Source: Candidatus Latescibacterota bacterium
GTDB lineage: Bacteria > Latescibacterota > UBA2968 > GCA-2709665
Assembly: GCA_965203805.1 (NCBI GenBank)
Contig: OZ241917.1
Span: 512,001 to 576,000, forward strand
Reading direction: 5' to 3'
DNA: 64,000 nucleotides
Shown: positions 13,931 through 18,897 of the stretch, in pieces
Position numbering within the stretch: the first letter of the stretch is position 1
How the letters are laid out: each line of letters starts with the position of its first letter
The notes under the pieces: model-generated
What the model saw: the letters and a program-made list of their open reading frames with translations, nothing else
The model's database searches: none
Told to the model about the DNA's origin: nothing
Made by a program: the position numbers and the translations under genes

Positions 13931-14548
13931 ATGGCAGAATCCGACGAAGTCAACGGCAAGGAAAGCTGCGAGGAAACCACCGAAGCGGAAGTGCGCGAGG
14001 ACGGGGAAGCGTCCGGGGAAGAAGACGCGCCGGACCCGCTCGAGGAAGCGCTCCGGGAGTCTGAAGAGTACCGGGATCGGTGGATGCGCCTGGCGGCGGA
14101 ATTCGACAATTACAAGAAGCGGAGGTCACGGGAATTCGATGCCCTGGTCCAGTCGGCCAGCGAAAACCTCATTCGGGAGTTGCTGCCGGTCCTCGACTCG
14201 GTTGCGCGAGCGCTGGAACACCGCGCCGACGGCGAGGAAGAATCCGACGGTTTCAGACAGGGCGTCACGATGATAATGGAGCAGTTTCCCAAGGTCCTCG
14301 AGCGTCGTGGCCTTTCCGAGATCGACGCCCTGGGCCGGCCCTTCGACCCCAACTATCACGAAGCGCTGATGCAGATGTCTTCAGACGAACACGCGGAGGG
14401 TCTGGTGATGGGCGTGGTGGATCGGGGGTACCGCTTGGGCGACAAGGTGATCCGGCCCGCAAAGGTCGTCGTGAGCGGCGGGAGTGCGGCGGAGGAACCT
14501 GAAAGCAAAGAAGACGGCGGGAAAGCGCCTGAAGCGCGGGAATCCTGA
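13931..14548 (+). CDS. grpE: nucleotide exchange factor GrpE
   Basis: [23 protein letters not shown] and [11 protein letters not shown]. Confidence 0.95.
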
Positions 14549-14561
14549 GCAGGAACGAAAT

Positions 14562-15719
14562 ATGTCAAAACGCGACTATTATGAGGTTCTCGGGCTGCAA
14601 CGGGAAGCATCCGAGAACGAGATTAAGAAGGCCTATCGCAAACAGGCGATGAAATATCATCCGGATCGGAACGCGGGCGATGAGGAGGCCGCGGCCAGAT
14701 TCAAGGAGGCCGCCGAGGCGTACGAGGTCCTGAGCGATACCCAGAAACGCCGGGTGTACGACCAGTATGGGCATGCGGGCCTGGGCGGCCCGTTCCAGGG
14801 CGGTGGATTTCAATGGTCCGACTTCACGCATGCTACCGATTTCGAAGATATTTTCTCCAACCTCGATGACGTGTTCGGCGGCGGGATTCTGGGCGACCTG
14901 TTCGGTCGTCGCGGCGGCCGGCGGGGCCCTCAGCGCGGGGAAGACCTCCGCATTCCGCTCCGGCTGACCCTCGAGGAGATCGCGTCCGGCGTCCAGAAGA
15001 AGATCCGGTTCGCCCGGATGGACCGGTGCGACACATGCGGTGGAACCGGGGCACGGACCGGGTCGGCCGCCAGGACCTGCAGCGTCTGCAACGGCATGGG
15101 GCAGGTGCGACAGGCCACGCGATCGCTTTTCGGGCAGTTCGTGAACGTCACCACGTGCCCACAGTGCAACGGAGAGGGCAAGGTGATCGGCGACCGCTGT
15201 TTCGACTGTGGGGGCGACGGCAGGGCGAAGAAGACCGTCAGTCTGTCCGTGAACATACCGGCGGGCGTCACCGACGGTAACTACATCCCGTTGCGGGGGC
15301 AGGGCAGCGTCGGCCCACGGGACGGCGAAGCCGGCGATTGCATGGTGCTGATCGAAGAGGAAGAGCACGAGTATTTCGAACGGCATGGCAACGACATTCT
15401 CTATGAGTTGCCCATCAGTTTCAGCCAGGCGGCGCTGGGCGCCGAGGTCACTGTACCCACGTTGAGCAGCAGGGCGGAAATGAAGATTCCCCCCGGGACG
15501 CAGTCCGGTCAGGTTTTTCGCCTGAAGGGCAAGGGCATCCCCGAGTTGAACGGATACAGGACCGGAGACCAGCTCGTGCGCGTGATGGTCTGGACCCCTG
15601 CCCGTCTCAATGAGGAAGAGAAGGCGCTGTTCCGGCAGCTCGCCGAGCTCGAGAATATCCAGCCGCCGGAGGGCGGCAAGGGTATATTCGAACGCATGAA
15701 GGAGGCGTTCGGCGCTTAA
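14562..15719 (+). CDS. dnaJ: molecular chaperone DnaJ
   Basis: J domain with HPD, G/F-rich region and four CxxCxGxG zinc repeats. Confidence 0.97.
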
Positions 15720-15782: not shown

Positions 15783-17219
15783 TCAGGTCAGCCCTGGAAA
15801 CAGGGGCTGGCCCTTTTTGATCTCAACCTTCGAGAAACCGGCTTCAATTCGTTCAGCCGTATCCGGAAGAAAGGGTCTGAGGACCCACGAAGTGGCGCGG
15901 ACCGAACCGACCCAGGCCGAGAGGTGTTGTTCGAGCTTCCCGGCCCTTTGCCCTTTCAGAAGTTCCCATGGGCGTACCGCGTCGATTTCACGGTTCATGT
16001 CGTCCACACGCCGCCAGACCGCCTTGAGGGCCCCGGCGAAGTCGAAACGGTCCAGCGCTTCGTTAACCTGGTGTGGAACCCGGAAGTCGGGTATCTCCGC
16101 CTGACCGTAACCGCACCGTTCGCAGAGAGATTCGAGTCGGCGCACGAGGTTGCCCAGGCCGTTCGCCAGGTCGGAGTTGTAGACCTCCCGGAGCCGCGCT
16201 TCGGAAACGTCGCCGTCCTCACCGGAACGAACGGCGCGGAGCAGGTAATATCGTACGGCGTCAGGTCCGTATCGCCGGATCAGCGGGAATGGATCCACGG
16301 CGTTGTCCAGCGACTTGCCGATCTTCCGGCCTTCCACGGTCAGATGGCCGTGGACGAAGATGGCCCGGGGCAGCGGCAGGCCGGCTGAGAGCAGCATGGC
16401 GGGCCAGTAGACGGCGTGGAATTTGAGGATGTCCTTGCCGATGACGTGGACCTTGTCAGGGCAGTCACGCCAATAGCGCTTGAATTCTCCACTGTCCCGG
16501 CCGTAGCCGAGTCCCGTGAGGTAGTTGGTCAGAGCGTCGAACCAGACGTATACGACCTGGGCCGGGTCGCCGGGCACGGGCACGCCCCATCCGCCGGACC
16601 GACTCCGATTGCGGGAGATGCTGAAGTCCCTCAGACCCTGCCTGATGAATCCCAGCGCTTCGTTTCGCCGTGTCTCCGGGAGAATGCGGAGCTTTCCGGA
16701 CGCGATCAGACCCTCCAGTTCTGCCTGATAGGCGGATAAGCGAAAGAAGTGGTTCGTTTCTTCGACGGATTCGGGTTCGACACCGTGTAGAGGGCATCGA
16801 CCGTCCGAAAGGTCCCGCTCCAACAGGAAGTCCTCGCAGCCCACGCAATAGAGCCCTCGGTACTGATTGCGGAAGATGTCCTCCTGCCGGCAGGCCGACC
16901 AGAATCGGGAGGCGCCGGTAATGTGGGTGTCCGTCGAGGAGCGGATGAAGCGGTCGTACGAGATGTCGAGGGCTTCGGCGAGGTTCTTGAAGACAGCGGC
17001 ATTCCGTTCGCACAGTTGACGCGGCGTCAGGCCTTCCCTTGCGGCGGCCTGCACGTTCTTGAACGCATTTTCGTCGGTTCCGGTCAGGAAGAACGTGTCG
17101 TGGCCCAGAAGCCGGCGCCACCTGGCGATCGCGTCGGCCTGTACCAGCTCCAGTGCGAAGCCCAGGTGGGGGCGGGCGTTGACGTAAGGGATGGAAGTCG
17201 ACACATAGAAAGTCTTCAT
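15783..17219 (-). CDS. metG: methionine--tRNA ligase, compact one-knuckle form with variant HLGF/KIGKS motifs
   Basis: IPYVN..PHLGF, TGTDE, YCxxCE..CPLH knuckle, FSISR..GWG, YVWFDAL.NY, IGKDILKFH..YWPA, KIGKS.DN and DLAN.LGNL. No C-terminal dimerization domain. Confidence 0.92.
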   Translation of the reverse strand: MKTFYVSTSIPYVNARPHLGFALELVQADAIARWRRLLGHDTFFLTGTDENAFKNVQAAAREGLTPRQLCERNAAVFKNLAEALDISYDRFIRSSTDTHITGASRFWSACRQEDIFRNQYRGLYCVGCEDFLLERDLSDGRCPLHGVEPESVEETNHFFRLSAYQAELEGLIASGKLRILPETRRNEALGFIRQGLRDFSISRNRSRSGGWGVPVPGDPAQVVYVWFDALTNYLTGLGYGRDSGEFKRYWRDCPDKVHVIGKDILKFHAVYWPAMLLSAGLPLPRAIFVHGHLTVEGRKIGKSLDNAVDPFPLIRRYGPDAVRYYLLRAVRSGEDGDVSEARLREVYNSDLANGLGNLVRRLESLCERCGYGQAEIPDFRVPHQVNEALDRFDFAGALKAVWRRVDDMNREIDAVRPWELLKGQRAGKLEQHLSAWVGSVRATSWVLRPFLPDTAERIEAGFSKVEIKKGQPLFPGLT

Positions 17220-17345
17220 GGCATGTCCTTTCCAATTGGGTTCCGGCTATTGAAGATGCGATGGGATTCCGCAAAGAAAGTGACATGCACATGAAAGAGA
17301 CGCCGCCCGCACTGTGAGATATATGGCTGAACACGCTGTCTTCCT

Positions 17346-17386
17346 CAACAAATGAAACCCACCGCCGATTCATCGGCGGTGGGTTT
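17346..17386 (-). terminator. attenuator terminator (3:4 hairpin) in the metG leader
   Basis: Minus strand AAACCCACCGCCGAT-GA-ATCGGCGGTGGGTTT followed by CATTTGTTG, about 135 nt before the metG ATG. Confidence 0.8.
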
Positions 17387-17414
17387 GTCGGTTCGAATCT
17401 ACGTGTGATTCAGA

Positions 17415-17573
17415 TCAGATCAGGGGATGTTTCGCCGCCGAAGTTCCGCTGGTACAGGTGGCCGGCATGTACATCGAAAGTTCGACGGCGTCCGCCTGCG
17501 TCGCGTCGTTCGGTACGGCTGAGGATCGCCGGGATATTCGCGATCCGTCATTTGAGCATTGAACAGACTTCAT
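17415..17573 (-). CDS. putative metG attenuation leader peptide (52 aa, Met-Tyr-Met control codons)
   Basis: RBS AGGAG then ATG. Translation MKSVQCSNDGSRISRRSSAVPNDATQADAVELSMYMPATCTSGTSAAKHPLI*. It is below the ORF-track cutoff. Confidence 0.65.
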   Translation of the reverse strand: MKSVQCSNDGSRISRRSSAVPNDATQADAVELSMYMPATCTSGTSAAKHPLI

Positions 17574-17600
17574 TTCAGTCTCCTGTATTCAGTACGAGAG

Positions 17601-17629
17601 AATATAGAATGCGGGCCACGAATTGTCAA
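17601..17629 (-). promoter_or_regulatory. sigma70 promoter of the leader-metG transcript
   Basis: Minus strand TTGACA-17nt-TATATT. Confidence 0.7.
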
Positions 17630-17645
17630 GCTATCCGGTTTGACG

Positions 17646-17665
17646 CCTGCCTGCCGGCAGGCAGG
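17646..17665. repeat. REP-like perfect palindrome CCTGCCTGCCGGCAGGCAGG
   Basis: 20-bp perfect inverted repeat; a related GCCTGCC..GGCAGGC arm pair occurs at 28915-28939. Confidence 0.7.
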
Positions 17666-17847
17666 GCCTCCTCAGGTTGACCGTCAGGTCCCCGGATTTT
17701 ATCTTACCCTTGTCCTTTTCGCGGTATGGGCTTACATTGACGCAGACGGGAAGACCGGCGGCTGGCACACCGGTTGTCCGATTTCGCGCCTCTACCGGGC
17801 GTAAATTCACTCGTGTGAACACATTGTTAAGGAATAAGGGTTCGGCT

Positions 17848-18897
17848 GTGCTATACTGGCTGGGAGAACGATTTGCCGATGTCTACGGGCCTCTACGGCT
17901 CTTGACGTCCTACCTGTTTCTGGCAGTGCTCGGCACGGCGCTGGCGGGACTGTTTACATGGCGGCTGCTTCCCGGATTGTGGATGCGGCTGCCCAAAGAC
18001 AGGGGCCGCGCGTACGCAGTCGAGAACGAGCAGAGCCACGGAAAGCCCGTTGGCGCGGGCGTGATCTTCATCCCCATCTATCTGGTCGTGTGTTTCCTGA
18101 TTCTGCCGCCGGGTTCCCAGTACTGGCAGATTCTGGGCTGTCTGTTTCTCGCCATGCTGGCCGGGTTTCTTGACGATCGAAGTCCGGGAGGGTGGGGCGA
18201 GTACCGCGTGGGAGCCATCGACCTGGGCATTTCCCTGCTTGGCGCAATGGTCATCTGCCAGTTGGAATCCGTCGAGCTCTGGCTGCCGCTGATGAAGACG
18301 CCGGTTCTGGTTCATCCGTGGATATTCGTGCCCGGGGCCGCGTTATTGATCTGGGTTTCAATCAATGCCACCAACTGTACGGATGGCGTGGACGGGCTGT
18401 CGGGCAGCCTGAGTGTCCTCGCCTTCATCTATCTGGGCGTCATTCTATACGGGATTGTGGGGCACACGGATATTGCCAGGTATCTTCTTGTGCCGCACTA
18501 TCCCGACGGCGCGGTATGGGCCCTGTTCTCATTTGCCATGGCCGGGTGCCTGGCCGGTTATCTGTGGTACAACGCCTATCCCAGCGCCGTGCTGATGGGT
18601 GACGCGGGGTCCCGGCCGATGGGCTTCCTGCTCGGAATACTCGTTCTGGCGTGCGGCAATCCGTTTCTGATCGTCGTCGTTGCCAGCGTGGTCCTGGTGA
18701 ACGGGGCCACGGGACTGTTGAAAGTGGCGCTGCTGCGGTTTCTGAAGATCGGGATTTTCCAGACGGTTCGATATCCTCTGCACGATCATTTCCGGCACAA
18801 GAACGGCTGGTCGAATACGCACGTGCTCGTCCGGTTTATTCTGCTCCAGGCGTTTGTAACGCCGATTCTGCTGGTTCTGCTGGTTAAGATACGATAG
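17848..18897 (+). CDS. mraY: phospho-N-acetylmuramoyl-pentapeptide transferase (MraY family), stand-alone and divergent
   Basis: About 10 TM segments with GFLDD, NATNCTDGVDGL, WYNAYP..VLMGDAGS and PLHDHF..GWS motifs. Confidence 0.8.
   Translation: MLYWLGERFADVYGPLRLLTSYLFLAVLGTALAGLFTWRLLPGLWMRLPKDRGRAYAVENEQSHGKPVGAGVIFIPIYLVVCFLILPPGSQYWQILGCLFLAMLAGFLDDRSPGGWGEYRVGAIDLGISLLGAMVICQLESVELWLPLMKTPVLVHPWIFVPGAALLIWVSINATNCTDGVDGLSGSLSVLAFIYLGVILYGIVGHTDIARYLLVPHYPDGAVWALFSFAMAGCLAGYLWYNAYPSAVLMGDAGSRPMGFLLGILVLACGNPFLIVVVASVVLVNGATGLLKVALLRFLKIGIFQTVRYPLHDHFRHKNGWSNTHVLVRFILLQAFVTPILLVLLVKIR

Follow-up and report, generated by a model that had tools for sequence, protein, structure and literature searches.

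Can a leader peptide report the supply of charged methionyl-tRNA when it needs the same amino acid to begin? The question is raised by a 64,000-nucleotide (nt) stretch of DNA from a Candidatus Latescibacterota bacterium (GenBank assembly GCA_965203805.1, contig OZ241917.1, positions 512,001 to 576,000; hereafter, the window). Here, a metG gene encoding a methionyl-tRNA synthetase (MetRS) is preceded by a short open reading frame (ORF) with two closely spaced Met codons, and by an intrinsic terminator. Analysis of this region and its relatives indicates that it is probably a ribosome-mediated transcription attenuator, which would sense charged elongator tRNA-Met and control an auxiliary metG gene.

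Attenuators of the trpL type are familiar from the Escherichia coli trp, his, leu, thr, and ilv systems. Leader-peptide attenuation has been described for Trp, His, Leu, Thr, Ile/Val, Phe, and Cys; to our knowledge, methionine is the missing case. The gap possibly exists because the same synthetase charges the initiator tRNA needed to start the leader. In Firmicutes, metS and metG are controlled instead by T-box leaders, which contain a specifier loop and a T-box sequence and read uncharged tRNA directly.

The metG leader

All leader features lie on the minus strand. The sigma-70-type promoter (17601–17629) comprises the −35 element TTGACA (17629–17624), a 17-nt spacer, and the −10 element TATATT (17606–17601). 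It matches 11 of 12 consensus positions, predicts a transcription start at about 17594, and is the sole promoter-like site on the minus strand between 15500 and 19000. (The scan found two sites on both strands together, compared with 1.1 ± 0.9 in shuffled sequences.) Next comes leader ORF 1 with its ribosome-binding site (RBS; 17415–17584): AGGAG at 17584–17580, 6 nt before the ATG at 17573; 52 codons; and TGA at 17417–17415. The 52-residue peptide (17573–17415), MKSVQCSNDGSRISRRSSAVPNDATQADAVELSMYMPATCTSGTSAAKHPLI, has internal Met residues only at codon 34 (17474–17472) and codon 36 (17468–17466). These belong to the run ATG-TAC-ATG, codons 34–36 (17466–17474), the proposed regulatory codons.

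Three alternative helices can be drawn in the leader RNA. Segment 1 (CGCCGUCGAA, 17481–17490), which would be the 5′ strand of an anti-antiterminator, is separated from the first Met codon by 6 nt. Segment 2 (UUCGGCGGCG, 17433–17442) copies part of the terminator 3′ arm, and can pair with either segment 1 or the terminator 5′ arm. Segments 1 and 2 form a 10-bp duplex (−18.4 kcal/mol) that is paired in the minimum-free-energy fold. Segments 2 and 3 pair over 7 bp (UCGGCGG/CCGCCGA), enclosing a small GAAUC/GAUUC hairpin (17411–17407, 17399–17395). The intrinsic terminator (17346–17386) consists of segment 3 (17386–17373), the loop (17372–17369), segment 4 (17368–17355), and a U-rich tail (17354–17346), CAUUUGUUG; its hairpin (17386–17355) has 14 pairs, nine of them G-C, around a 4-nt loop. 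Calculated helix energies are −25.6 kcal/mol for 1:2, −15.8 for 2:3, and −26.7 for 3:4, making the antiterminator the weakest. The antiterminator is also the weakest of the three helices in the trp attenuator. The 256-nt leader as a whole folds at −93.4 kcal/mol, against −74.1 ± 4.8 for shuffled sequences (z −4.0; none of 200 as stable).

A sequence-only reading of the window had proposed these elements: the promoter with its 17-nt spacer; the AGGAG and 52-codon ORF; codons 34 and 36 as the only internal Met codons; the 10-bp and 7-bp alternative pairings; and the terminator with its U-rich tail. Each lies where that reading placed it. Its further statement, that this attenuator stands upstream of metG, needs two amendments. 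First, the terminator is not directly before metG: approximately 135 nt, holding a second regulatory module that this reading did not include, separate it from the start codon at 17219. Second, the gene is indeed a MetRS gene, but a longer metG is present elsewhere in the genome.

The regulated gene (15783–17219, minus strand) encodes a 478-residue methionine–tRNA ligase of the MetRS1 type. Its product matches TIGR00398 in NCBIfam at 410.8 bits (cutoff 336.35) as well as PF09334 in Pfam. Because the alignment covers only positions 3–475 of the 648-position MetRS model, the protein lacks the C-terminal tRNA-binding domain. The longer second metG is 41% identical to this copy. Every genome of the genus has the long gene, including one (G001) in which the short gene is missing. 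Across the phylum, the short gene is present in 24 of 168 genomes at E ≤ 1e-120 and missing from the other 144, a distribution that marks it as an accessory paralog. This metG is an auxiliary MetRS gene and not the housekeeping one. That status fits the precedents of attenuator-controlled synthetase genes; one Streptomyces trpS copy, for example, encodes an auxiliary, antibiotic-resistant enzyme.

Two signature motifs were also read in the encoded enzymes. The class I HIGH signature (17170–17180 in the window, MetRS residues 14–24) reads H-(L/V/I)-G-F in all Latescibacterota copies; among 82 matched loci, it is H-x-G-F in 58 and H-x-G-H in 22. The KMSKS motif is KIGKS or KISKS.

How might the leader work? 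In a first tier of control, transcription would start from the promoter at 17629–17601, and a ribosome would load onto the 52-codon leader ORF. With Met-tRNA(Met) plentiful, this ribosome would pass codons 34–36, cross segment 2, and reach the stop codon 15 nt further on. Segment 2 would be either covered by the ribosome or recaptured by segment 1, the 14-bp terminator would form, and transcription would end near 17350. With Met-tRNA(Met) scarce, the ribosome would stall at the Met cluster. It would then cover segment 1, which ends just 6 nt upstream, whereas segment 2, beginning about 30 nt downstream, would stay out of its reach and pair with the terminator 5′ arm, and polymerase would read on. 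In a second tier, the read-through transcript of this genome would face another check, in which the metG RBS and AUG are hidden in a hairpin with the Met codons of a further upstream ORF, ORF 2. A ribosome paused in ORF 2 would keep this hairpin open, as in ermC-type control. Leader translation, stalling, termination, and the response to Met-tRNA are what we infer from these features.

The sequence-only reading had pointed out that initiation of the leader depends on MetRS as well, a puzzle that would have the following answer. Initiator and elongator tRNAs form separate pools, and elongation spends several Met residues per protein compared with one for initiation. The elongator pool should therefore be the first to run down when charging is partly lost, and the effect would be magnified by successive Met codons. 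A general argument of this kind about attenuator sensitivity has reportedly been made in one earlier paper. A conserved Met leader would show that cells separate initiator from elongator supply, and would provide a natural reporter of elongator Met-tRNA charging.

Conservation and Met specificity

The elements described above are present in the sequence itself; comparison shows that they are conserved and that the enrichment is specific for Met. Seventeen orthologous loci (L001–L017) plus five more (L113–L117) make 22 analysed copies, on contigs labelled Candidatus Latescibacterota except for two labelled Gemmatimonadota. (L018 was excluded, as its match begins at residue 39 and contains a stop; the metG matches of L116 and L117 have one internal stop each.) Fifteen leaders, from thirteen loci of the genus together with L016 and L017, were aligned.

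At least one Met-codon module is found in all 22 Latescibacterota copies, so the Met codons central to the sequence-only reading are conserved in homologous leaders. Promoter, RBS, leader ORF, Met cluster, and terminator have a fixed geometry in the thirteen genus loci, L016, and L017. CTTGACA and either TATATT or TATCTT occupy the equivalent position in the aligned leaders, and all 15 retain the following features: the RBS, start codon, and frame; the Met cluster; the ORF length; the terminator; and the 2:3 pairing. Counted from a conserved MKSVQ-type start, the ORF has 52 codons in 12 of the 15; the others have 53 (L010), 50 (L013), and 48 (L016). The cluster M-x-M-M falls at codons 34, 36, and 37 in 13 of the 15, and is shifted by one (L010) or five (L005) codons where a longer ORF was called. 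The window alone in the genus has M-Y-M-P in place of M-x-M-M. The ORF 1 stop codon lies 31 nt before segment 3 in 13 of the 15 leaders.

In more divergent lineages, the Met clusters are MGMPMSM (L016, with four Met residues), MGMSM (L114), MGM (L113), and MAMPRM (L115). Apart from these clusters, the L016 and L114 leader peptides are unrelated to that of the genus. Leader peptides in the divergent lineages that cannot be aligned still hold in-frame Met clusters, and all that these lineages have in common is the Met cluster and the segment-2-to-terminator logic. Two loci of Latescibacterota family f4, L116 and L117, each have two leader-terminator units in tandem. L014 and L015 are without the transcriptional module and have only the second module.

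The leader unit is always linked to the short metG paralog, and its DNA occurs only once in the genome. The distance from the terminator U-tract to the metG RBS is just 6–16 nt in ten genus orthologs, leaving no room for another promoter; metG in these must therefore be transcribed through the terminator.

Two side observations concern leader peptides and their distribution. The L116 and L117 leader peptides mix His runs with Met: HMHHHHVMPAAW, HHYHFHCHAMPRAW, and MHHHHMMW. A search of the source genome for at least three ATG codons within five, followed by a terminator, gave three matches at two places, near 5,211,113 and near 5,833,450–5,833,495. The first was rejected as a further Met leader, as a long ORF of the opposite strand encloses it.

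Does the pattern extend beyond the phylum? Loci of the same MetRS subfamily were collected from species genomes of many phyla, one per species. The first set comprised 69 loci with at least 300 nt upstream, in which closed upstream ORFs with two or more, or three or more, Met codons within five residues were counted. At the lower threshold, 36 were found on the forward strand and 10 on the reverse complement, compared with a mean of 5.5 (maximum 11) in shuffled sequences. At the higher threshold, the numbers were 14 and 2, with a shuffled mean of 0.24. Thirty-two of the Met-cluster ORFs in this set end within 160 nt of metG. Metagenomes provided another 70 loci, or 63 after removal of seven duplicates. 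These gave 27 forward and 9 reverse at the lower threshold (shuffled mean 6.7), and 11 and 2 at the higher (shuffled mean 0.1).

The enrichment is specific. When all 20 amino acids were compared, Met stood at z-scores of 13.7 and 32.5 for the two thresholds, and the next, Phe, at 3.8; these scores overstate the independence of the loci, because even one-per-species loci are related. Canonical long metG loci provide a control: none of 12 has a Met-cluster upstream ORF, and neither does the canonical metG of the source genome.

Distinct leader families can be recognized. Planctomycetota, Verrucomicrobiota, and Hydrogenedentota share the pattern ..MMMPGAW..GSG.M. Chloroflexota leaders contain MSMAMRSR.NP; those of Gammaproteobacteria, MPMAMPQMW; and those of Actinomycetota, SMMAL.PG..G or MVTFWSQVMMPR. 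That leader sequences differ between phyla suggests repeated invention. Strong hairpins with U-tracts follow many of the distant leaders (for example, at L045, L049, L058, L063, L067, L070, L075, L087, and L089). Automated terminator finders gave 8 of 35, an undercount relative to hairpins that can be read directly. A second MetRS-like gene is present in four of five distant genomes tested, the exception being the unpublished genome G169.

These conserved, Met-specific leaders lend support to the proposal of the sequence-only reading that limitation for Met-tRNA would lead to read-through into metG. For the wider class, the balance tips modestly toward Met-codon leader peptides being widespread, so far undescribed sensors of elongator Met-tRNA charging. 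They would precede genes for auxiliary short MetRS1-type synthetases in Latescibacterota, Planctomycetota, Verrucomicrobiota, Hydrogenedentota, Chloroflexota, Actinomycetota, Gammaproteobacteria, and Myxococcota, with two modules used alone or stacked in Latescibacterota. Many phyla appear to keep an inducible backup MetRS. Is the main enzyme disabled by Met shortage, by oxidative damage, or by natural inhibitors? For genome annotation, the implication is that short ORFs and terminators upstream of these genes are better labelled leaders than hypothetical proteins.

Alternative pairing and rival explanations

Attenuation requires that a stalled ribosome shift the pairing of segment 2. When a ribosome is taken to stall at the Met cluster and the RNA on its 3′ side is folded locally, 5–11 nucleotides of segment 3 are paired in all 15 aligned leaders. 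The partner is segment 2 in the four structures that were re-read (L001, L004, L007, and L016), and L006 has a shorter antiterminator of 4 + 4 bp. The 2:3 helix (CGGCGG core with CCGCCG, alignment A1) pairs in 97.8% of alignment cells and includes two compensatory pairs (C-G to U-A and G-C to A-U); slid controls mostly pair in 17–39% of cells. The RNAalifold consensus includes both the 1:2 helix and the terminator, the latter with six compensatory pairs. Less conserved is the 1:2 helix, whose 10-bp register is confined to L001 and L002; the other leaders have 6–8 bp, shifted by 3 nt. In the consensus of the 15 leaders, this helix pairs in 86.7% of cells.

Several observations weigh against attenuation or leave its support thin. 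The window contains the weakest version of the leader: its Met codons number two, and its U-tail is interrupted. The open frame in itself proves little, since at 59% G+C another frame is long as well. Of 3000 random 40-nt genome windows, 6% pair as well as segment 2 does with segment 3; it is therefore the conserved ensemble, and no helix alone, that carries the case. L016 is the only lineage to contribute compensatory pairs to the 2:3 helix, and it contributes both. Because this helix is a 3-nt repeat, 78–81% of cells remain paired when the register is slid by 3 nt. Exchanges of segment 2 and terminator arm between lineages do not discriminate, as all four combinations fall between −14.0 and −16.6 kcal/mol. 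Covariation in the 1:2 helix is not above that in shuffled alignments (222 of 500). When a simple antiterminator test was applied to other phyla, only 2 of 14 leader-terminator units ranked within the best 5% of the background.

Folding with a masked ribosome gives a divided answer. The local folds pair segment 3 in every leader, whereas full-length folds are noisy and form the 2:3 helix in only 7 of the 15. The local folds were adopted because full-length constrained folds are dominated by long-range 5′ pairings. Moreover, when the ribosome is omitted, 1:2 is the local minimum-free-energy structure in only 4–5 of the 15 leaders. The others keep 2:3, which predicts read-through when the leader is not translated, another point against the model. 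Termination without stalling in these other leaders probably depends on the ribosome itself: as the stop codon lies 15 nt past segment 2, a terminating ribosome would, from the size of its footprint, cover the 3′ edge of the 6-bp core. Thus, among the pairings expected in homologous leaders, the terminator and the 2:3 helix hold up, with covariation in the latter contributed by one lineage, and the 1:2 helix is conserved less well.

What else could such a leader do? It might report general ribosome slowing, brought about by antibiotics or global starvation, in which case the translation-coupled attenuator would remain and its Met codons would be incidental or structural. The paucity of Met codons in this leader, just two, would be expected. 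So would the position of the ORF 2 AUGs, opposite the palindromic CAUG of the metG start, where pairing alone could keep them; and ermC-type systems (PMC2965389) set a precedent for sensing stalls irrespective of amino acid. However, Met is the sole amino acid enriched in clusters, by the z-scores given above, and its clusters persist across phyla in leaders that are otherwise unrelated. The controlled gene encodes the cognate synthetase, and the ORF 1 Met codons sit in a loop region, where pairing does not need them. General slowing is therefore an unlikely explanation.

Alternatively, the leader RNA might itself bind a ligand or protein, as a Met or S-adenosylmethionine riboswitch, a tRNA-binding element, or a MetRS autoregulatory operator, with the ORF being fortuitous. 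Conserved alternative helices followed by a terminator do suit a riboswitch, and open frames arise easily at this G+C content. Yet the leader 5′ half varies in sequence, with RBS, start codon, frame length, and in-frame Met cluster all retained. Divergent lineages have only the Met cluster and segment-2/terminator logic in common, and no conserved aptamer-like core was seen in the leader alignments. Searches with Rfam found no family at threshold. An Rfam cmscan of 16900–18000 at E ≤ 10 returned only three sub-threshold matches, all on the terminator hairpin (STnc240, mir-4041), and 20 homologous loci gave no match at gathering score. These results make a binding element quite improbable.

Finally, it is very unlikely that the region is an independent small gene, for a 52-residue protein or a small RNA, with metG expressed constitutively by leak-through or from some other promoter: promoter, ORF, and strong terminator do form a complete unit, set 135 nt from metG in the window, but the peptide is not conserved outside the genus except for its Met cluster, the unit is unique in the genome and always accompanies this metG paralog, ten genus orthologs have no space for another promoter, and no other promoter-like site occurs on the minus strand between the terminator and metG.

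A second module and known systems

If ORF 1 and its terminator form a Met-tRNA-sensing attenuator, as we favor, then its read-through transcript enters a second module. ORF 2 (17208–17346, minus strand) has an RBS, GAGGAAG, at 17346–17340; a GTG start at 17334–17332; and Met codons at 17292–17290 and 17286–17284. It crosses the metG start out of frame and has no conserved stop, extending over 23 to at least 197 codons. Each of the seven aligned copies has an RBS and in-frame start, 9–17 codons before a conserved peptide core, S-x-x-G-G-(I/V/L)-x-x-M-(R/C)-x-S, whose codons show synonymous third-position changes. The first Met codon is at −73 in six of the seven loci, and is the only invariant one. 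The ORF 2 element also lies behind the terminator in L004, L017, L113, and L114, and occurs without a terminator in L014 and L015; the metagenome locus L121 has it too.

The accompanying hairpin (17214–17296, minus strand) sequesters the metG start. Its 5′ arm (17296–17275) contains the ORF 2 Met codons, and its 3′ arm (17233–17214) buries both the metG RBS, GGAAAGGA (17233–17226), and the start codon (17219–17217). The 92-nt segment 17299–17208, which holds the hairpin, folds at −29.8 kcal/mol (z −4.3; none of 300 shuffled sequences as stable). The hairpin is the minimum-free-energy structure in all seven loci and pairs in 89.5% of cells, compared with 26–46% for slid controls. Four compensatory pairs were found, a number reached in 2 of 500 shuffles.

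The hairpin itself is thus well supported. That it senses Met through ORF 2 has about even odds, because pairing requires the CAUG opposite the start in any case and no Met other than the first is invariant. As CAUG is palindromic, pairing alone could account for an AUG that faces the metG start, which counts against a sensory role. We read ORF 2 and hairpin together as a putative ermC-like translational attenuator, a view less certain than that of the first tier. The conserved peptide might itself act as an arrest peptide.

Other arrangements of this region were noted. L113 and L121 carry an insert of approximately 250 nt that separates the terminator from ORF 2 and is conserved from one record to the other. 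The L121 terminator 5′ arm has a G-to-A change that creates an A-C mismatch in the terminator and improves pairing with segment 2. The terminator-metG gap of L016 contains a possible decayed copy of ORF 2 (..LGGLGAHST..), read by eye, in a different frame relative to the metG start.

How do these modules compare with known systems? The first resembles trpL in having a promoter; a short ORF with its RBS; a cluster of cognate codons; 1:2, 2:3, and 3:4 helices as alternatives; and an intrinsic terminator. It also differs in several ways. The amino acid sensed here also starts the leader peptide, and the target is a synthetase paralog instead of a biosynthetic operon. The leader is long (52 codons), and its 1:2 helix varies among orthologs. 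The stop codon is 15 nt 3′ of segment 2, so that the ribosome would read through this segment and not halt before it.

The module also shares with T-box leaders of metS and metG the control of a synthetase through a terminator-antiterminator choice, which here is presumed to respond to tRNA charging. The proposed reader in this case is the ribosome, whereas the T-box RNA itself binds uncharged tRNA. A T-box riboswitch was considered and rejected, with no T-box match at E ≤ 10 in 16900–18000 or at gathering score in the 20 homologous loci.

Closer in purpose are cognate-rich leader peptides before cognate synthetase genes, often duplicated or auxiliary copies. PMC1262725 describes attenuators before pheST in gamma-proteobacteria and before trpS and leuS in Streptomyces, and PMC2965389 describes a hisS paralog in bacilli that has a leader peptide. 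Not one of them concerns methionine; the Met leaders, by comparison, span many phyla and can stack with a translational module. A precedent for masking by a ribosome at the stop codon is the ilvB1 attenuator (PMC13236596). For the methionine operons of Actinobacteria, PMC1262725 reports finding no RNA regulatory structure. A full-text literature search, with subscription journals and supplements outside its coverage, found no paper on a Met-codon leader or a metG or metS attenuator. The sequence-only reading had likewise known of no described Met leader-peptide attenuator.

The second module invites comparison with ermC and cat. In each of these, the stall site of an upstream ORF belongs to the 5′ arm of a hairpin in which the downstream RBS and start codon are buried, as is putatively the case for ORF 2. 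The proposed trigger here is shortage of Met-tRNA and not a drug, and ORF 2 has no conserved stop. Conservation of its core, GG-I/V/L-x-x-M-R/C-x-S, could mean that arrest depends on the peptide. The mechanism overall is classical; its apparently new aspects are the amino acid, the range of phyla, and the stacking with a translational module. With transcriptional and translational parts in tandem, the region offers a compact system for studying layered control.

Some minor observations concern the surroundings. A perfect 20-nt palindrome, CCTGCCTGCCGGCAGGCAGG, occupies 17645–17664, just upstream of the −35 element and between the leader promoter and a divergent gene (17677–18897). It could be an operator, a repeat element, or a bidirectional hairpin; similar GCCTGCC/GGCAGGC repeats are also found upstream in L005. 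At the other end of metG, a 10-pair hairpin with a T-run (15786–15812) lies at the junction with the convergent dnaJ gene (14484–15719, plus strand; metG stop at 15783, minus strand), and may form a shared end for both genes.

The source organism is represented by metagenome-assembled genomes only. Of the 20 sequencing runs listed for the region, none is an RNA run; they are of DNA or unknown type, mostly from sponge, coral, or marine metagenomes. Among these listed runs, those with at least half of the sampled words are three DNA runs of one coded organism and four sponge metagenomes; the organism may be a sponge associate.

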